Assembly (NCBI GenBank): GCA_001000675.1 | Contig: LCHW01000003.1 | Span: forward strand, 3,873-67,872 | DNA from: Candidatus Wolfebacteria bacterium GW2011_GWE2_44_13 | GTDB lineage: Bacteria; Patescibacteriota; Minisyncoccia; UBA6257; UBA9933 | Direction of reading: 5' to 3' | DNA length: 64,000 bases | In this document: piece after piece, positions 2,186 through 39,817 of the stretch | Numbering within the stretch: the first letter of the stretch is position 1 | Layout of the letters: each line of letters begins with the position of its first letter | The notes under the pieces: model-generated | What the model saw: the letters and a program-made list of their open reading frames with translations, nothing else | Database searches by the model: none | What the model was told of the DNA's origin: nothing | Program-made: the position numbers and the translations under genes

Positions 2186-3505
2186 TTATTCATCACTAAA
2201 TGCCATTTCTGTTTGGGGAACAAGTGTTGGATCTGTTGGGATAGTAATATAGAAGGTACTCCCTCGACTTACTTGCGATTCAGCCCATATATCTCCCCCA
2301 TGTCTTCGGACAATATTTTTTGTAATATATAACCCAAGCCCTGTGCCATCGGCAACTGTCTTTTGTGCATTGTCCGCTCGGAAAAATTTCGTAAACAATC
2401 GTTGCATTTCATCCGCCGGGATACCAATACCCGTATCCTTTACGCTCACCTCTACATATGGCTTTTCGGCTACCGCTTTTATTGTCACTACCACTTCCCC
2501 ATTTTCAATATTGTATTTGATTGCATTAGAAACTAGATTCGCCAAAACAATGCCCAATTTCTGTGGATCGATTGTTACTGCGATTGGATTTTCTGATTTT
2601 TGCAAATAGAGCTTGATTCCCATTTCTTTTGCATAGACCATCAGTTCCGCCAAGACTCTCTCGGCAAATTCATTAATGTCCATTGCTTGGAACTTATACC
2701 CATATTTTCCTTCTTCTATCTGAGAAACATCAAGTAGGTCGTTTACTGTCTTTAAAATATTTCCTGCCGCAATTACACCCATGCCAACCATTTCCTTTTG
2801 CTCATCGGGCATGGTTTCTTTTGCAAGTGATTCGAATATCCAGTTAATTGATGTTAGGGGCGTGCGGAGCTGATGTGCCGCAACCTCAATAAACTCACTC
2901 TTTGATTTTAACATCGCCACCTCGCGTGTTCGCTCATGAATAATTTTTACAAACCCAAGTAAGGTGCCGTTTGGATCAACAATGCGATCAGTTGATACGC
3001 GTAGCTCTATTGATGGATTCGTAAATGACATATCGACTATCTGCGGATAGATTCCCCCCTCGGTCCTCCTCACTACCAATGGAGCAATTGATGGATACAG
3101 CACTTGCGCTAATAGCGTAAGCTTTTGATCTTTTACACTTTCCGGAGTTACCCGCTTTCCCATAACCTCAGCAATCGGGGCTCCCAATATTTGCTGCGCT
3201 GCTTTATTCATCATCACTACTTTGAAATTTTGATCGTATGCGATCAATCCATCAAGAAGATTTGCAACAATACTTCCTAGCTCATTTCTTTCGAGCTTTA
3301 TTTCTCCATTAAGTCGCACGATACGAATGCCATTCAAAAAAATAATAGTACCCATTACCAAAAAAATACTCGCGCTAATCATAATCCACACTGGCTGCAA
3401 ATAAATACTATTAATCCCAATCAATACCAGCGCCAGCGGCAAAAAATACCAGAAGGGCCTCATTTCTGGCATTTTTAAATATGCGGTTATTGTTCCCGGT
3501 TGCAT
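2186..3505 (-). CDS. Sensor histidine kinase (membrane, PAS-like plus HisKA plus HATPase)
   Basis: N-terminal TM helices, H-box HQLRTPLTSI, G-box GTGLGLYITKNIVRRHGG. Confidence 0.8.
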   Translation of the reverse strand: MQPGTITAYLKMPEMRPFWYFLPLALVLIGINSIYLQPVWIMISASIFLVMGTIIFLNGIRIVRLNGEIKLERNELGSIVANLLDGLIAYDQNFKVVMMNKAAQQILGAPIAEVMGKRVTPESVKDQKLTLLAQVLYPSIAPLVVRRTEGGIYPQIVDMSFTNPSIELRVSTDRIVDPNGTLLGFVKIIHERTREVAMLKSKSEFIEVAAHQLRTPLTSINWIFESLAKETMPDEQKEMVGMGVIAAGNILKTVNDLLDVSQIEEGKYGYKFQAMDINEFAERVLAELMVYAKEMGIKLYLQKSENPIAVTIDPQKLGIVLANLVSNAIKYNIENGEVVVTIKAVAEKPYVEVSVKDTGIGIPADEMQRLFTKFFRADNAQKTVADGTGLGLYITKNIVRRHGGDIWAESQVSRGSTFYITIPTDPTLVPQTEMAFSDE

Positions 3506-25047: not shown

Positions 25048-27228
25048 TTACTCCAAATGCACCTTATCATGAAATCGCGCTACGATTCCTTTTAGCTGTG
25101 CGTGCTGTTTCAACTCTGGATCTATTTTCAATACCCCTTCTGCGGCCCCACGAGCGCTTTTGACGAGCTTTATATCGTGCAATGAACGCATAGCCAAATC
25201 GGGCAATCCTGTTTGTGATTGACCCATAAATTCCCCAGGACCACGCAACGCAAGGTCTTTCTCGGCGAGTTCAAAACCGTTCCTCGCATGCACCAATGCT
25301 TCGAGTCTGTCTTTTGTCGGTTGTGACGATGAATCGGTAAATAATAAACAAAATGATTGATGCTCGCCTCTCCCTACACGCCCCTTGAATTGATAGAGTT
25401 GCGCCAACCCAAATCGTTCTGCGCCTTCGATCATCATAATCGTTGCGTTCGGAATATCTACGCCCACTTCAATTACTGAAGTCGCCACTAACACATCGAT
25501 TGTGCCTTTTTTCATCCGCTGCATCACCTCAGCTTTTTCTGCTGGTTTTAGTTTCCCATGCAACATCTCCACACGCATGTCAGGAAAAATCTTCTTGGAC
25601 AATTTATCGTATTCTTCCTTAACTGTTTTCGTTTCCGCGGCAAACCAATTTTTCCCCTTCCCGTCTTCATCTTCATTTTTTTCTATACGCGGACAGATAA
25701 CAAATATCTGCCGTCCTTTCTTTACCTGCCCACGAATAAACGCATACGCGTCGGTACGGCTCGCAGGGGGCACAATCTTTGTCATAATCGCCTTTCGCCC
25801 TTTCGGTAATTCTTCGATAATTGAAACGTCGAGATCGCCAAACAACGTGAGTGATAATGTACGCGGAATCGGCGTTGCGGACATGGATAAGAAGTGTGGC
25901 AAGTATTCCCCATTTCCCTTTTTATGCCCTGCGAGTGCCTGACGCTGCTTCACACCAAAACGATGTTGCTCATCGATTACTACAAGACCTAGCTCATCAA
26001 ACGTAACCCCTTTCTGTATTAATGCGTGTGTACCAATAGCGATTTTTATTTCGCCGGTTGCGAGCTTTTTAATTACATCCGCTTTTTTCATCTCACTCTC
26101 CAACCCTTCTCCAAAAAATACCCTTGCGCCCGATGCGGTTAATAGTGCAACTCCTTTTTCAAAATTCCCGAATATTTTTTTAAACGTATGGTAGTGCTGT
26201 GTTGCAAGAATTTCTGTCGGTGCCATAAAAGAAGCTTGTTTTCCCGCTTCAGCAATAATAATTGCCGAGAGTACTGCGACGATTGTTTTTCCTGAGCCTA
26301 CATCCCCTTGTAGTAGACGATTCATGGGGTGCGGGCGTGCTATATCATTCATAATCTCACGCATCACCTGTGCCTGTGCCTCTGTTAATTCAAATGGCAA
26401 CTGTTTAAGTAGCTCGCTGAATTTTTCTTCTTCCATTTCGCATGCATATGCATTCTCTTTCGCAAGTCGCAGCCGTTCGAGCATGTTTACTAATTGGAGG
26501 TAAAAAATATCTTCGAATGCTATTCTTCGCCGTGCGCGGGTTACGTCTTCCATTGTCTCCGGAAAATGAATCCCTCGAAGTGCATCGTTAATGTCCATAA
26601 CAGCAGCACGTTCAAGCATACTCGCTGGCAAGGTTTCAGGGACTCGATCAATGGCATCGAGTAATGGTTTTATCAAAAACCGCAGCCCTTTTGAAGTGAC
26701 TCCTTTTGTTTCCGGATACATCGGTACAAGCCTCCCTGTATGCTTACATGCCTCTATTTCTTCGCGATAATCCGCTGCGTTTTCTATAAATTGCTCATCG
26801 TCTTCTGAAAACCCTACGATTTCATATGATGGGTGTGAAAACCCTATTCCCGCTTTTCCATCGCTCACTTTTCCGGCAAGATTAATTACCATCCCTTTTT
26901 TAAGCATAGCCACAAGAAACTTTTGATTGAACCACGTAGCGCGCACGCTCCCTGTCGCGTCTGCAACAGTAGCTTGAATGATAAACATCTTTTTCCTAAA
27001 TGATCGGAGTATTTTTATCTCTTGGATTACCCCTTGGATTGTTGCTGGTTCTCCAGGTATTAAATCAACAATATTTGCGATGTTCGAAAAGTCCTCATAC
27101 CGAGATGGAAAATGCCACAGTAAATCTTTTACTGTTTTTAAACCCAATTTTTGCAATCGGACAGCAAATGCAGGGCCAATGCCTTTCACATATCGTAATT
27201 CGGTTTCCAGTTGTGTTCCCTGCGTCAT
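25048..27228 (-). CDS. recG: ATP-dependent DNA helicase RecG
   Basis: N-terminal wedge domain, DEAD-box helicase motifs (GDVGSGKT, DEQH). Confidence 0.9.
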   Translation of the reverse strand: MTQGTQLETELRYVKGIGPAFAVRLQKLGLKTVKDLLWHFPSRYEDFSNIANIVDLIPGEPATIQGVIQEIKILRSFRKKMFIIQATVADATGSVRATWFNQKFLVAMLKKGMVINLAGKVSDGKAGIGFSHPSYEIVGFSEDDEQFIENAADYREEIEACKHTGRLVPMYPETKGVTSKGLRFLIKPLLDAIDRVPETLPASMLERAAVMDINDALRGIHFPETMEDVTRARRRIAFEDIFYLQLVNMLERLRLAKENAYACEMEEEKFSELLKQLPFELTEAQAQVMREIMNDIARPHPMNRLLQGDVGSGKTIVAVLSAIIIAEAGKQASFMAPTEILATQHYHTFKKIFGNFEKGVALLTASGARVFFGEGLESEMKKADVIKKLATGEIKIAIGTHALIQKGVTFDELGLVVIDEQHRFGVKQRQALAGHKKGNGEYLPHFLSMSATPIPRTLSLTLFGDLDVSIIEELPKGRKAIMTKIVPPASRTDAYAFIRGQVKKGRQIFVICPRIEKNEDEDGKGKNWFAAETKTVKEEYDKLSKKIFPDMRVEMLHGKLKPAEKAEVMQRMKKGTIDVLVATSVIEVGVDIPNATIMMIEGAERFGLAQLYQFKGRVGRGEHQSFCLLFTDSSSQPTKDRLEALVHARNGFELAEKDLALRGPGEFMGQSQTGLPDLAMRSLHDIKLVKSARGAAEGVLKIDPELKQHAQLKGIVARFHDKVHLE

Positions 27229-27316
27229 ATTTTCTTATTGTACGAGATATCTCCTTGAAGCGCTATTGCTACCTCTATAACAACATACTCACGGCGTTAG
27301 CCGTGAGTATTTTGTA

Positions 27317-27483
27317 CTTTTTGTGCCCCTGTGTGGCACCCTCTTCGCACGATAGCATAACATGCTATCGTGCTCGGGGGCAGGCCCAATCTCACTGTGT
27401 CTGCGACGTTCGATTCCACGCAGGGGCAAAGAAAAAAGAGTGGCTTTGAAGCCACTCCTTTTTCTTTTTGTGCCCCTGTGTGG
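27317..27483. repeat. 20-bp direct repeat of a tRNA 3' end (ctttttgtgcccctgtgtgg at 27317-27336 and 27464-27483) flanking a 127-bp segment
   Basis: Exact duplicate of the 3' acceptor/T-stem region of the adjacent tRNA. The intervening segment holds a perfect 12-bp hairpin (gcacgatagcat aac atgctatcgtgc) and an inverted copy of the tRNA T-arm/acceptor. Confidence 0.7.
27421..27478. terminator. Long palindromic terminator module mirrored onto the tRNA acceptor
   Basis: caggggcaaagaaaaaagagtggc tttgaa gccactcctttttctttttgtgcccctg. Confidence 0.55.
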
Positions 27484-27542
27484 AATCGAACCACAATTTT
27501 AACTTCCGCAAAGTCATGTCCTATCCATTGAACGACAAGGGC
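27471..27542 (-). tRNA. tRNA with apparent anticodon GCG (nominally Arg); identity uncertain
   Basis: Good cloverleaf. Acceptor gcccttg/caggggc, D-loop aatggata, anticodon loop ttgcgga, T-loop ttcgatt. Confidence 0.7.
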
Positions 27543-27639
27543 TTTTATTGCAACTTTCCTACTATACCCATAGGGCTCATTTTTTGCAACCCTCTAGTGC
27601 CTCCCTATTACCAGCAGGCACTAGCGTGCAAATCTCCTA

Positions 27640-28281
27640 TCAAAAACCGAGTGATCGTTCGAGCGTTTCGAGTAGTGAAACTTCTATTTCTCCATGCTTT
27701 ATTTTTCCATCCAATACCTCCCGTATTTCTTCTTCGTATTCTACGGGGATAAATATTTTTACGTAATGGTGTACCTTCGATTTTGTTTGTAGCACCAATT
27801 CAGCATATTCATCTGAAAATTCGTGCACATCGTACAGCGTAATATCTTTGTACTTATATGTTTTATGTCCTTCAATAGTGACACCCACTTCGTCAATCGT
27901 AAACTCCCACATTTTAGGCTTCTCACCCGCAAACATAAACACGGCCAATTCAGCAATCATGACAAAGACTGCGAACAAAAAGTTTTTTTGCCACAACGCG
28001 ATCGCAATCAACACAATGGCAATAGCCATACTTACCCAATACCATGTTGTGCTTTTTTCAACGTATTCTATTTCCGGAGCTTCCCACATAATCACGCCTT
28101 CTTCTTCGTATATTTCTTCTTGCACATCTTCGACGATTTCTGGTTCATTATGCGTATCTCCAGTAGTCACATCTTCTGCGACTTCCTCATGATATTCTTC
28201 CGCAGCAATTTCTTCATCGGATTTTTTGAAAAGCATTGAGTTTTCGTTTTCCATGAGTTTATTATACCGCAAAGAACGCAA
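27640..28281 (-). CDS. Hypothetical membrane protein with acidic N-terminus
   Basis: 213 aa with a central TM pair. Confidence 0.4.
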   Translation of the reverse strand: MRSLRYNKLMENENSMLFKKSDEEIAAEEYHEEVAEDVTTGDTHNEPEIVEDVQEEIYEEEGVIMWEAPEIEYVEKSTTWYWVSMAIAIVLIAIALWQKNFLFAVFVMIAELAVFMFAGEKPKMWEFTIDEVGVTIEGHKTYKYKDITLYDVHEFSDEYAELVLQTKSKVHHYVKIFIPVEYEEEIREVLDGKIKHGEIEVSLLETLERSLGF

Positions 28282-28358
28282 AAAAACATCAATACCAATT
28301 CTCCCTATCCTTTTTTATAAAAATAATACACCCCGCAAGAGTGTATTATTTTTATTTG

Positions 28359-28443
28359 AGGAGGCGAGAGGATTCGAACCTCCGATGCCTTGCGGCATAC
28401 TTGTTTTCAAGACAAGCCGTTTCAACCACTCACGCACGCCTCC
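28359..28443 (-). tRNA. tRNA-Ser (anticodon TGA)
   Basis: Acceptor ggaggcg/cgcctcc, anticodon loop cttgaaa, long variable arm. Confidence 0.85.
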
Positions 28444-28470
28444 CTCTTTTATATATATTGCTTTTTAAGT

Positions 28471-28532
28471 TGGCTTAAGACAAGCCGTTTTAACCCCTGC
28501 CTGCCGGCAGGCAGGACTCACGCACGCCTCCC
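28471..28532 (-). pseudogene. Truncated duplicate of the tRNA-Ser 5' half with a palindromic insertion
   Basis: gacaagccgtttTaacccctgcctgccggcaggcaggactcacgcacgcctccc repeats the 5' half of the neighbouring tRNA-Ser. It carries the 20-bp palindrome cctgcctgccggcaggcagg and has no T-arm. Confidence 0.55.
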
Positions 28533-28570
28533 AATTATTGTTTTCCACTGAACTGCATAACTCAGCAGAG

Positions 28571-28643
28571 TGGACCTTACCGGGATCGAACCGGTCACCT
28601 CTTCCATGCCATGGAAGCGCTCTACCAGATGAGCTAAAGGCCC
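28571..28643 (-). tRNA. tRNA-Ala (anticodon GGC)
   Basis: G3:U70 Ala identity pair, anticodon loop atggcat. Confidence 0.8.
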
Positions 28644-28710
28644 TCACATCACTGACAAAATCAATCTTATCTAAAAAATACCTAATTGGCAAGAATTAGA
28701 TGGACCAAAC

Positions 28711-28745
28711 AAAAACCGCCAATCCTTGCGAACTGGCGGCTTCTG
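28711..28745 (-). terminator. Rho-independent terminator downstream of tRNA-Ala(TGC)
   Basis: ccgcca..tggcgg hairpin followed by a T-run on the minus strand. Confidence 0.5.
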
Positions 28746-28755
28746 CCAAATATTG

Positions 28756-28828
28756 TGGACCTTACCGGGCTCGAACCGGTCACCTCTACATTGCAAATGT
28801 AGCGCTCTACCAGATGAGCTAAAGGCCC
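28756..28828 (-). tRNA. tRNA-Ala (anticodon TGC)
   Basis: G3:U70 pair, anticodon loop tttgcaa. Confidence 0.85.
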
Positions 28829-28931
28829 TGATAGTTTTTCTATTCTATAAAACTTTTTAGAAACTTGCAACAGCAACTTAAACAATATAATCTATGTAAA
28901 TGCCCGTTGCAAGAGGGCGTATCCCAGCCTT

Positions 28932-29003
28932 GCCTTCGTAGTTCAATGGATAGAACAAATCCGTCCTAAGGATAAAATGGGGGTTCGATTCCCTCCGAGG
29001 GCA
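28932..29003 (+). tRNA. tRNA-Arg (anticodon CCT)
   Basis: Acceptor gccttcg/cgagggc, anticodon loop gtcctaa. Confidence 0.75.
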
Positions 29004-29064
29004 CAATTTCTTGAAAAGCATAGGTGTTTCTGCTATCTTCTATAGGTATCTTTATTGCGACATA

Positions 29065-29136
29065 GTCCTCATCGTTCAACGGATAGGACACAAGGTTCCG
29101 AACTTTGTAATGGAGGTTCGATTCCTCCTGAGGGCA
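29065..29136 (+). tRNA. tRNA-Arg (anticodon CCG)
   Basis: Acceptor gtcctca/tgagggc, anticodon loop ttccgaa. Confidence 0.85.
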
Positions 29137-29148
29137 CAATTTATATAA

Positions 29149-29237
29149 GGAGGCGTGCCAGAGCGGTTGAATGGGACGCACTCGAAATGCGTTATACTGG
29201 TCAAACAGTATCGGAGGTTCGAATCCTCTCGCCTCCT
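29149..29237 (+). tRNA. tRNA-Ser (anticodon CGA)
   Basis: Acceptor ggaggcg/cgcctcc, anticodon loop ctcgaaa, long variable arm. Confidence 0.85.
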
Positions 29238-29239
29238 CA

Positions 29240-29368
29240 AATATATTAGGACACCCGCCAAGGGTGTTTTGATATATCGGGCGAGTGGATGAGAAGTTTA
29301 CCCTGAACATTTCGGCGAGCTCAATGCGAGCCTCTGCCGAAGGGAATCCTCTCGCCTCCTCAAAAATA
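29240..29368 (+). pseudogene. Degenerate tandem copy of the tRNA-Ser(CGA) 3' end plus downstream hairpin
   Basis: A second gaatcctctcgcctcctcaaa at 29344-29364, with a degenerate body, followed by a hairpin that parallels the one after the intact tRNA. Confidence 0.45.
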
Positions 29369-29471
29369 CAGTAATGCGCCCCACAAGAGTGCGTTGTTGT
29401 ATATACTTTTATTAAAATAAAGGCCCCAGCAGATTATGCCGGGGGCTTAGGTTGCATACGAACGTTTCGTT

Positions 29472-30413
29472 TCAATCAAGAGCAAGTCTCGCCTTAACGA
29501 TTTCGACAAGTTCTTGCCATGAAAGACCACTCCCCATTTCTCTCGACGATCCGCCGATAATTGTCGACCCGCTCCATCCATTTACTCGGGTAAGTCCTTC
29601 AGCGAGATTAAAATCATCGTAAAGCGTTTGAATTGGGAATGGTATATATTGCGATCTTCTTCCGATGGTATAAACATGTCGCCCATCCGTTCTTTGAGCA
29701 ACCACGCTTATGAATGCGTTCATGCCTTTCCCGTAAAGGTGGTAGCGCGCTTCATTCCCCCCGATTTCGTTCACAATTTTAAATATCGGCGAGTCGTACA
29801 GTATTTCGTGACGAGTGTCGAGTGTTTTTCCTCCGGCCTGGCCCATAAGAAGCATGTCTAATCTTTTCATGACCGCCTCTATATTATCCCGAAGCATGTT
29901 TTCATCTGCTTGCGATAGCTTTCCCGTTTTCCGCAAATCGGTATACGGTTCGAAAATCCAGCAATGTTGCCTGACAATCTCCTCGTCGAGATTTATCGGA
30001 TATGCACCGCCCGTTATATCCCACTTATTAGTAAGATCGAGCAAGCGGTTGATGTGCGGTAGGCTTTGCACTCCCTCAAAAAGCTTATAGTTATTAAGAA
30101 GCCAAACAGCCATAGCCGTGTCCTGATCCGTGTCGTTAATAAACACGTTTAAACAAGGCATCCCATTTTCACGGAAAGATTCCATGAGCCCGCCTTTGAT
30201 GGCCATGTAGGCCTGCATGCATGTACTCATGGTCGCATCCCTGTTGACACCATCGTGGTGATCAAAATTTGCATGCATTGTACGTTCGTCAAATCGAGGA
30301 CCTCCTGAAACCACTCCATCAAGCGCGACGGAATTACGAGGTGTCATCGCTACGAACTCTTCCCATGACATAGTTCTTCTTGGCAAAATACTCAGGGTCA
30401 TTCCTTTTTTCAT
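29472..30413 (-). CDS. Hypothetical protein
   Basis: 313 aa with an FDHHDG motif near the N-terminus. No confident family. Confidence 0.45.
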   Translation of the reverse strand: MKKGMTLSILPRRTMSWEEFVAMTPRNSVALDGVVSGGPRFDERTMHANFDHHDGVNRDATMSTCMQAYMAIKGGLMESFRENGMPCLNVFINDTDQDTAMAVWLLNNYKLFEGVQSLPHINRLLDLTNKWDITGGAYPINLDEEIVRQHCWIFEPYTDLRKTGKLSQADENMLRDNIEAVMKRLDMLLMGQAGGKTLDTRHEILYDSPIFKIVNEIGGNEARYHLYGKGMNAFISVVAQRTDGRHVYTIGRRSQYIPFPIQTLYDDFNLAEGLTRVNGWSGSTIIGGSSREMGSGLSWQELVEIVKARLALD

Positions 30414-30849: not shown

Positions 30850-30875
30850 ATTTCCATTTTCTCGTCCACGGAGGC

Positions 30876-30913
30876 AAAGAAAAAAGAACGGCGTCCGCCG
30901 TTCTTTTTTCTTT
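30876..30913. terminator. Palindromic terminator module next to the tRNA-Glu 3' end (same core as 27431-27470)
   Basis: aaagaaaaaagaacggcg tccg ccgttcttttttcttt. The flanks imperfectly mirror the tRNA acceptor. Confidence 0.55.
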
Positions 30914-30916
30914 ACG

Positions 30917-30988
30917 TGCCCTCACGGAGAATCGAACTCCGGTTTATAGGATGAGAACCTATTGTCCTAACCACTAGACGATGAGGGC
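30917..30988 (-). tRNA. tRNA-Glu (anticodon CTC)
   Basis: Acceptor gccctca/tgagggc, anticodon loop ttctcat. Confidence 0.85.
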
Positions 30989-39595: not shown

Positions 39596-39669
39596 TGGAC
39601 TCATAGCTCAGCTGGTTAGAGCGTTCGATTCACATTCGAGAGGTCACAGGTTCGAATCCTGTTGGGTCC
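39596..39669 (+). tRNA. tRNA-Val (anticodon CAC)
   Basis: Acceptor ggactca/tgggtcc, anticodon loop ttcacat. Confidence 0.85.
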
Positions 39670-39817
39670 ACCCGTATTAGAGATGGGAGGTTTGAGATAA
39701 GAGATGTGAGACGGAAAATTCGACGGGACTCATTATTTCTCTTGGTTCGAATCCAGTAGCGACACTAGTTTTTCATAAGGCTATTAAATTTTGCATAAGT
39801 AAGCTAATGTATAAAAT

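Follow-up and report, generated by a model that had tools for sequence, protein, structure and literature searches.

A structured tRNA-trailer element, possibly of the RtT type, behind tRNA-Arg(GCG) in Candidatus Wolfebacteria

Introduction

In the genome of Candidatus Wolfebacteria bacterium GW2011_GWE2_44_13, the 3' end of a tRNA-Arg(GCG) gene is present twice, and the DNA between the two copies is rich in hairpins. This locus was studied in a window of 64 kb, a stretch of 64,000 nucleotides (nt) of contig LCHW01000003.1. The feature is best read as an RtT-like variant rather than as an integration scar; that the 147-bp unit is one copy of a tRNA-trailer RNA module resembling the RtT RNA of Escherichia coli is a tentative identification, whose probability we place just short of even. 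The unit belongs to a family of structured elements of approximately 85–105 nt, found in Wolfebacteria directly behind tRNA genes and running in the same direction as these. The closest known element is RtT, which is built on the same plan; the literature searched yielded no description of tRNA-linked repeats of such a kind in bacteria of the Candidate Phyla Radiation (CPR). We infer from sequence that the module is transcribed, processed and has a role in the cell.

CPR genomes are minimal, of about 1 Mb, with little spare DNA, and the Wolfebacteria are groundwater members of this radiation. RtT RNA was reportedly first noted in the early 1990s; it has been regarded as a peculiarity of a single tRNA operon of E. 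coli, and its function is unsettled.

The duplicated tRNA end and its surroundings

Coordinates are positions in the window, and "sense" denotes the tRNA strand, which is the minus strand at 27280–27589. Read in the sense direction, the locus consists of the tRNA gene, a first terminator, an inverted arm (B), the domains P2 and P3, a direct arm (A) made up of a copy of tRNA nucleotides 61–73 and of the trailer, and a second terminator. The tRNA-Arg(GCG) gene, in which CCA is not encoded, was placed by ARAGORN and by the Rfam tRNA model (54.7 bits) at 27470–27542 on the minus strand; both arms derive from its 3' strand (source sequence X; nt 61–73, CCACACAGGGGCA). The initial annotation had reported that 20 bp of the tRNA end are repeated directly, and indeed the 20-mer CTTTTTGTGCCCCTGTGTGG occurs twice in the window, at 27317–27336 and 27464–27483, without any other match even when up to three mismatches are allowed (0.01 matches expected by chance); the repeat stretches to 25 nt at 92% identity. 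Since the tRNA gene occupies 27470–27542, the copy at 27464–27483 (C, minus strand) is, as that annotation had also stated, the authentic tRNA 3' end, together with six trailer bases. The copy at 27317–27336 (A, minus strand) reads CCACACAGGGGCAC and then AAAAAG in the sense direction, and supplies the 3' strand of the closing helix P1 together with a copy of the tRNA trailer.

Between the repeats, the perfect 12-bp hairpin and the inverted copy of the T-arm and acceptor that had been noticed earlier were recovered at their coordinates. The inverted copy covers the T-loop and the acceptor 3' strand (27408–27437 versus 27462–27491; 30 nt, 87%), and together with the terminator hairpin (27428–27446 and 27449–27467; 19 nt, 95%) it forms a single palindrome of approximately 40 nt per arm, in agreement with the palindrome of that size originally described. 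Terminator 1 (27428–27467, minus strand) is composed of an A-tract, an 8-bp G+C stem (27438–27445 and 27450–27457) and a T-tract; given that it is palindromic, it should be able to terminate in both directions. The long palindrome is probably a by-product: the inverted arm complements the tRNA end, and what separates the two is a terminator that is itself self-complementary and has A and T tracts. RtT of E. coli has the same arms without an intervening terminator. Terminator 2 (27280–27315, minus strand), an addition to the earlier description, is an 11-bp hairpin situated directly after copy A, ahead of the promoter and start of recG, whose ATG is at 27228. Just upstream of the tRNA gene, the promoter-like sequence TTGCAA-17-TATAGT (27561–27589, minus strand), recognised by consensus match only, is the sole sigma-70-like site in 27100–27700. 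The region folds far better than its shuffled versions on both strands (z = -9.1 for the plus strand and -12.3 for the minus strand).

Fold of the element

The whole folded element is a three-way junction of 105 nt (27323–27427, minus strand) formed by helices P1, P2 and P3. A covariance model (R1) built from an alignment of 14 module copies matched this interval with 98.6 bits (E 6e-29), the next match in the window reaching 16 bits; with the filters off, the scan revealed a single full copy in the window. The 5' strand of P1 is arm B (27416–27427, minus strand; sense GCCCCTGCGTGG), which is the reverse complement of tRNA nt 61–72. Because B pairs with A, the closing 12-bp helix reproduces the acceptor and T-stem stack of the element's own tRNA, with the same 3' trailer. 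P2 (27388–27415, minus strand) reads, in sense, AATCGAAC, a 3-bp hairpin (GTC-GCA-GAC) and GTGAGATT; the first of these strands is the complement of a T-loop, and the last is T-loop-like and faces it with tandem G.A pairs. The small P2 hairpin covaries among copies (GGC/GCC, AGC/GCT, ACC/GGT, GCC/GGC and GTC/GAC). P3 combines a conserved core with a variable tip. Its 5' strand (27372–27387, minus strand; sense GGGCCTGCCCCCGAGC) is the best-conserved stretch of the family, its 3' strand lies at 27337–27348 (minus strand; sense GCGAAGAGGGTG), and the tip (27347–27373, minus strand) is in the window the perfect 12-bp hairpin (27347–27358 and 27362–27373). In the related loci L005, L149 and L151 the tip is CAACAGTAC..GTACTGTTG, with four differences from the window hairpin, all of them compensated, while other relatives have a non-hairpin tip in P3. 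The core found at tRNA-Arg(GCG), tRNA-Glu(TTC) and tRNA-Arg(CCT) follows the pattern ..AATCGAAC-loop-GTTCGATTGAGYCTGCCCCCGAGY-tip-GCGAAGMGGGTA.

The same junction is found in the 14 aligned copies, P1 being formed by the inverted and direct arms. Standard pairs occupy 88% of the cells of this alignment and both sides have changed in 18 of the 38 pairs; none of 500 shuffles was as good, and when the partners were slid they paired in only 28–37%. For P1 itself (columns 1–8 with 104–111) the values are 79% paired and both sides changed in five of eight pairs.

A short motif recurs in these cores. The heptamer GCGAAGC is present in type-1 cores (twice in L005, at 3213–3221 and 3273–3279, and twice in L149), in the type-3 core at tRNA-Arg(CCT) of L025 and in E. 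coli RtT; in the window, similar sequences are found at 27337–27343 and 27399–27407 (sense GCGAAG.. and GTCGCAGAC, respectively). As DNA, d(GCGAAGC) is an unusually stable mini-hairpin.

Orthologous loci and copy number

The RecG encoded in the window is 100% identical to the one recorded for Candidatus Wolfebacteria bacterium GW2011_GWE2_44_13. Relatives were examined as recG neighbourhoods in which RecG is 79–86% identical to that of the window. All of them carry tRNA-Arg(GCG) upstream of recG, and the insert turned out not to be unique to this genome, since the module is conserved after this tRNA in eight further independent relatives (L005, L007, L021, L022, L025, L149, L150 and L151). Duplicate loci were counted once (L010 is the same as L005; L008, L009, L012 and L152 are the same as L007; and L126 is a copy of L007). 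The module of L022 is without the distal direct copy, L025 has two nearly identical tandem units, L011 retains only a remnant of approximately 20 nt of the inverted arm, and L006 shows a clean empty site, i.e., the tRNA, one terminator and recG, with no module. The copy-number states seen at tRNA-Arg(GCG) are thus 0, 1 and 2. R1 gave 17 matches in the related loci, which with the window copy makes 18; two of the 17 are redundant, L001 being the genome studied here and L152 a repeat of L007. As many as four copies lie within 8 kb in L025: a tandem pair behind tRNA-Arg(GCG) and single copies behind tRNA-Glu(TTC) and tRNA-Arg(CCT). A search of eight more distant loci with R1 gave no match. The RecG search of genome contigs yielded three close relatives only, and a metagenome scan with the pattern CCCCCGAGC-N(0-30)-GCGAAGNGGGT returned at least 118 stretches and was too unspecific; among the matches listed only L126 was real.

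Arms that track the local tRNA

For every tRNA in the related loci, copies of its 3' end were sought in both direct and inverted orientation. The same core was found behind tRNA-Glu(TTC) in L021, L024, L025, L149 and L150, and behind tRNA-Arg(CCT) in L025, and at these sites the arms correspond to nt 61–72 of the local tRNA: GCTCCCACGGAG and CTCCGTGGG at tRNA-Glu, and the direct arm CCCTCCGAGGGCAC at tRNA-Arg(CCT). Likewise, at the Arg(GCG) loci the arms match the tRNA variant of each genome, either CCACACAGGGGC or CCTCACGGGGAC. The arm always starts at tRNA position 61, the first base past the T-loop. Imperfect or mosaic arms occur in L007, L149, L151 and at the Glu site of L149, and subtypes of the tip and of P2 are common to different tRNA sites. 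The initial annotation had offered, among other options, a structured tRNA-trailer module and a miniature tRNA-targeting element, and both descriptions find support in substance: one core is present behind three tRNA species, each time with arms that copy the local tRNA, and there are also an empty site, a remnant and a tandem duplication. The arrival of the core at a new tRNA and the matching of its arms could result from local gene conversion from the selected tRNA or from template switching at the common T-loop sequence.

A second module of the same design but with a different core follows tRNA-Ser(CGA) (29149–29238) in the window, at 29239–29368 on the plus strand. It starts with a terminator hairpin, after which come the inverted arm (GGGCGAGTGGAT) and an inner hairpin; the tRNA 3' end and trailer are then repeated directly over 25 nt (29344–29368 versus 29221–29245, 96%), and another hairpin follows. 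In L025, yet another core type stands ahead of the type-1 copy at tRNA-Arg(CCT). Outside the Wolfebacteria, Candidatus Pacebacteria L013 (c452-855, contig CALDDM010000005.1) has, 82 nt downstream, an exact copy of the tRNA-Arg(GCG) end that includes the T-loop and matches over 22 nt, the full length tested, and a degenerate inverted copy stands behind each of its tRNA-end copies; repeats of this type therefore reach beyond Wolfebacteria. Unrelated loci totalling approximately 790 kb, with 18 tRNAs, added no case besides tyrT and tyrV of E. coli. A direct repeat in L019 was left uncounted, as it is probably a second, partly masked tRNA gene.

Conservation of the core and strand asymmetry

Among the eight orthologous copies, the core, with the arms and tip left out, has a mean identity of 0.79, as compared with 0.75 for recG nucleotides and 0.475, which is near saturation, for recG third codon positions. 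On its flanks, the terminators as read vary in sequence between genomes, and some features are specific to a locus, e.g., the Glu-type P2 of L021, L025 and L150, which points to vertical inheritance. From these comparisons the core appears to be under purifying selection; homogenisation between copies is another possible source of its conservation.

With regard to the strand, all 18 R1 matches are co-oriented with their tRNA. Counted on the sense strand of the 14 copies, in cells that are not independent events, G.U outnumbers A.C by 30 to 11 (15 to 1 at the base of P3, with one G.U that 10 of the 14 copies share) and G.A mismatches outnumber C.T by 25 to 4. This asymmetry of wobble and G.A pairs favours the tRNA strand. 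In most relatives, moreover, the hairpin past direct arm A is a terminator in the sense direction. The summed folding energies of the 14 copies (-640 kcal/mol for sense and -626 kcal/mol for antisense) are nearly equal and so do not decide the strand.

Comparison with the RtT RNA of E. coli

The tyrT/tyrV locus of E. coli K-12 was examined as the reference for RtT. It contains three 178-bp units past tyrV and one between tyrT and tyrV; each unit includes a 22-nt inverted copy (86%) of the T-arm and acceptor strand, ends in the tRNA-Tyr 3' end plus trailer, and is a full-length match to the Rfam family RF00391 (RtT RNA), with 133–137 bits. The Rfam consensus pairs GGGGAAGGAU with AUCCUUCCCC, i.e., a helix between the inverted and direct copies, like P1. 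Both RtT and the Wolfebacteria module directly follow a tRNA gene and share its strand, both hold an inverted copy of the tRNA end, and the units of both end in a direct copy of this end with its trailer. In each of the two, a G+C-rich hairpin domain comes after a T-loop-like GGTTCGA strand, and then the direct copy resumes; the T-arm copy of RtT is interrupted inside the T-loop, just as that of the Wolfebacteria module is at position 60/61. Tandem amplification also occurs in both (3 + 1 units in K-12, two in L025), and they have in common the short motifs GGATGAGAAG, CCAAGGTTCGA..GAGC and GCGAAGCG; the first of these, a 10-mer, occupies an equivalent position in the Ser module of the window and in E. 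coli RtT. The closing helix of RtT is made of the T-stem strand and four acceptor bases, with an encoded CCA, whereas in Wolfebacteria it includes the full acceptor strand and no CCA. Furthermore, in the K-12 locus RtT accompanies tRNA-Tyr only, while the Wolfebacteria family is found with Arg(GCG), Glu(TTC) and Arg(CCT), and related designs at Ser(CGA).

According to the mechanism that we propose, the polymerase would pass terminator 1, transcribe the element within the tRNA transcript and stop at terminator 2. The element would then fold into the three-way junction, with a closing helix that mimics the acceptor/T-stem stack of its own tRNA, and this tRNA-like helix would let the maturation enzymes excise the element, RNase P making the 5' cut, in front of B, and the 3'-end pathway of tRNAs acting past A. 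The proposed excision is the same as the processing described for the RtT RNA of the E. coli tyrT operon. Whole units would be gained or lost by unequal recombination between the flanking direct repeats of the tRNA end. An acceptor-stem-like helix that recruits RNase P or RNase Z within a longer transcript is known from the plant mitochondrial t-elements and from the mascRNA of MALAT1. These systems resemble the role proposed for P1 in that an acceptor-like helix defines RNA ends; they differ in being eukaryotic or organellar, and are not known to derive from inverted and direct copies of the 3' strand of a neighbouring tRNA or to be flanked by repeats that alter the copy number. As for RtT itself, RtT RNAs have been annotated as expressed non-coding RNAs beside tRNA-Tyr in Klebsiella (PMC4147364), and a role in the processing of the tyrT transcript, and possibly in the stringent response, has been attributed to them (10.1101/2024.07.17.603846).

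Several observations weigh against the identification as an RtT-like RNA. Terminator 1 looks strong, so that little read-through would be expected; such an intrinsic terminator between tRNA and element is present in Wolfebacteria and absent from E. coli. P1 is degraded in L007, L149 and L151, which indicates that the closing helix is not strictly maintained, and DNA processes that maintain palindromes would also yield compensatory changes. The tRNA strand is purine-rich, which could partly explain the strand asymmetry, and the non-independence of the cells counted further tempers it. The covariance models do not recognise each other's elements: the RtT model, whose threshold is 45 bits, gave no match at E <= 10 in 26500–29500 or 29225–29375 of the window and none at E <= 1 in five related loci, and the best score of R1 on the E. 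coli locus was 4.4 bits. The inner fold is also different, being a three-way junction in Wolfebacteria and a long-range helix that encloses two hairpins in the Rfam RtT. Given the lack of cross-matches and the different topology, homology with RtT is not demonstrated.

Alternative explanations

The main alternative, which we regard as possible though on balance unlikely, is that the unit is a DNA-level repeat without an RNA role, i.e., a selfish or neutral palindrome similar to the repetitive extragenic palindromic sequence doublets (REPINs) or to miniature inverted-repeat transposable elements (MITEs), or else that it arose when the template was switched by snap-back at the hairpins of the terminator and T-arm. 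Such a repeat would persist and spread beside tRNA genes, its arms being kept tRNA-like by local gene conversion. The arrangement itself, with direct, inverted and direct copies of the tRNA end and a hairpin at both junctions, has the form of a tandem inversion duplication, and the presence or absence of the module, its remnant, the tandem duplication and the mosaic arms are all in line with a repeat of this sort. So are the tip and P2 subtypes common to different tRNA sites, which suggest exchange between copies, the strong terminator that insulates the element from the tRNA promoter, and the recurrence of GCGAAGC, a very stable mini-hairpin in DNA. However, conservation tells against it: the core, unpaired junction bases included, is conserved at 0.79 when recG third positions have fallen to 0.475, and the vertical inheritance of the Glu-type P2 points to long-term purifying selection. 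The G.U and G.A asymmetry fits one transcribed strand, only one full copy was found in the 64 kb, all the copies seen are at tRNAs, and no transposase or RAYT-type gene was seen among the neighbouring genes.

REP/REPIN sequences and MITE-type extragenic palindromes have been reviewed (PMC3184786, PMC3733652). The module resembles them in being small, gene-free, hairpin-rich, intergenic and variably present, with terminal inverted repeats, and in that they too are often near terminators; it departs from them in that its inverted termini are copied from the adjacent tRNA rather than owned by the element, and in that no transposase was seen. Where a MITE would have its own inverted termini and a short target duplication, here the B and A termini change with the adjacent tRNA, and the duplicated target is of 14–25 nt, with one of its copies parted from the element by a terminator. 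Tandem inversion duplications, which originate by snap-back template switching at short palindromes and add no foreign sequence, share with the module the direct–inverted–direct layout, in which a hairpin marks each junction of the triplicated short segment. In the third copy of the module, on the contrary, a conserved core of 28–55 nt, common to several loci, is set between the T-loop and the T-stem (position 60/61), and such a core cannot be made by snap-back de novo.

That the direct repeats are a footprint of integration, i.e., the attL and attR sites of a reduced, trans-mobilised element similar to the cis-mobilisable elements (CIMEs) or the leftover of an imprecise excision, seems improbable to us. 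A direct repeat of a tRNA 3' end that includes the trailer is the classic signature of attachment sites (att), and relative L006 has a precise empty site; in these two respects the module resembles att duplications and CIMEs, which enclose inserted DNA in the same manner. It differs from them in having three tRNA species as targets, an internal inverted copy of the target, which is not expected from integrase chemistry, and a conserved, structured core of 105 nt that covaries and is common to the three tRNA targets, and hence is not a random leftover. The Pfam families recorded for the called genes in the surrounding 14 kb were Mur ligase, RecG, a glycosyltransferase family, a DksA/TraR-type zinc finger, Mg-chelatase-like and UvrD, with no integrase or recombinase domain among these hits, several genes having no recorded hit. 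Six small open reading frames beside the modules of relatives were also scanned, and showed neither integrase or recombinase domains nor any informative Pfam domain. In addition, a 147-bp circle would be an implausible substrate for recombination, and no match to the module was obtained in phage, plasmid or viral-contig collections. In view of the conserved core, the covarying fold and the lack of an integrase domain among the recorded hits nearby, the excision scar considered in the initial annotation is not supported.

A gene for an antisense small RNA on the plus strand, converging on the tRNA and ending at the common bidirectional terminator with a tRNA-like 3' end (GTTCGATTCCACGCAGGGGCA), is very improbable: although the plus-strand fold is equally stable (-78.8 kcal/mol, z = -9.1), a good terminator directly follows the element on that strand, and the single P1 mismatch of the window is U.G on plus and C.A on minus, no promoter-like site was found on the plus strand, a terminator-like hairpin abuts the element immediately upstream and leaves no room for one, the hairpin beside arm A in the relatives terminates in the sense direction, the wobble and G.A asymmetry in the 14 copies favours the tRNA strand, and neither ARAGORN nor the Rfam tRNA model sees a tRNA there.

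Other classes of element were considered and rejected. A plus-strand tRNA, tRNA pseudogene, tmRNA or selenocysteine tRNA received no call from ARAGORN or Rfam, and the T-stem cannot pair on that strand. A retroviral-type primer-binding site was discarded since the copies carry the genomic trailer and no CCA, from which it follows that they derive from the gene and not from the mature tRNA. By eye, the core has no CUGAUGA box, as a hammerhead would require, and the GA..GAA around the tip resembles the tandem sheared G.A of a K-turn, but with the bulge on the wrong side. The Rfam search found no ribozyme, and relaxing its thresholds added nothing but hairpin-like noise, e.g., miRNA families.

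Further observations in the window and related loci

Two other tRNAs of the window are followed by tRNA-like sequence. After tRNA-Glu(CTC) (30916–30988), the region 30860–30915 (minus strand) contains a terminator and then GCCTCCGTGGACGAGAA; this sequence is similar to a portion of the 3' strand of tRNA-Glu (CTCCGTGG) and may be a module remnant; the flanks of this terminator (AAAGAAAAAAG..CTTTTTTCTTT) resemble those of the Arg module. After tRNA-Val(CAC) (39597–39670, plus strand), the region 39671–39765 includes GGGACTCAT...GGTTCGAATCCAGTAGCGACA at approximately 50–95 nt downstream, a degenerate tRNA-Val-like fragment with 5' acceptor-like bases and a T-arm that is not called by ARAGORN or Rfam. 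In L007, L008 and L009 (1–909), a reverse-transcriptase (RVT_1) gene is located just past tRNA-Arg(CCG), at the place where the window and L006 have tRNA-Ser(CGA); this last tRNA was not called in the fetched part of these three loci. A further conserved and apparently structured piece (..GTCGTTGCTAGCGA..GCGTGCAACG..GGAATG..) follows the modules of some relatives, at approximately 2070–2160 in L021, 140–200 in L022, 150–215 in L024 and 7680–7720 in L025.

The arginine tRNA for CGN codons at 27470–27542 and its orthologues have the anticodon GCG; the usual anticodon of the bacterial arginine tRNA that reads these codons is ACG. CCA is not encoded by most tRNAs of the window. Regarding recG, a conserved GTACAATA(A/G)G..AAATATG precedes the gene in the window (27229–27250, minus strand) and in all the related loci; it includes a -10-like TACAAT located 10–11 bases before the start codon, and no obvious ribosome-binding site was observed, which suggests a very short or absent leader.

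Implications

RtT and the Wolfebacteria modules could represent a single widespread and unrecognised class of tRNA-operon RNAs, in which the 3' strand of a tRNA is paired to its complement, a structured domain is inserted at the T-loop, and new tRNA genes are colonised by re-templating the arms from the local tRNA. This generalisation is doubtful at present; if true, the class would be a tRNA-guided mobile module of RNA or DNA without a protein gene, with a role in tRNA maturation or in sensing the tRNA supply.

For the annotation of genomes, the locus advises caution, since a tRNA end that is repeated directly over a short length need not be the scar of an integration. The occurrence of an RtT-like design in CPR bacteria, at several tRNAs and with arms that track each tRNA, changes the picture of an oddity confined to one operon, and suggests that this design is either useful to tRNA operons or made at tRNA 3' ends by a general mechanism not described so far. 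With many diverged copies and natural swaps of the arms, the family provides a comparative handle on RtT-type RNAs, as well as a concrete and testable candidate for a processing signal that mimics tRNA.

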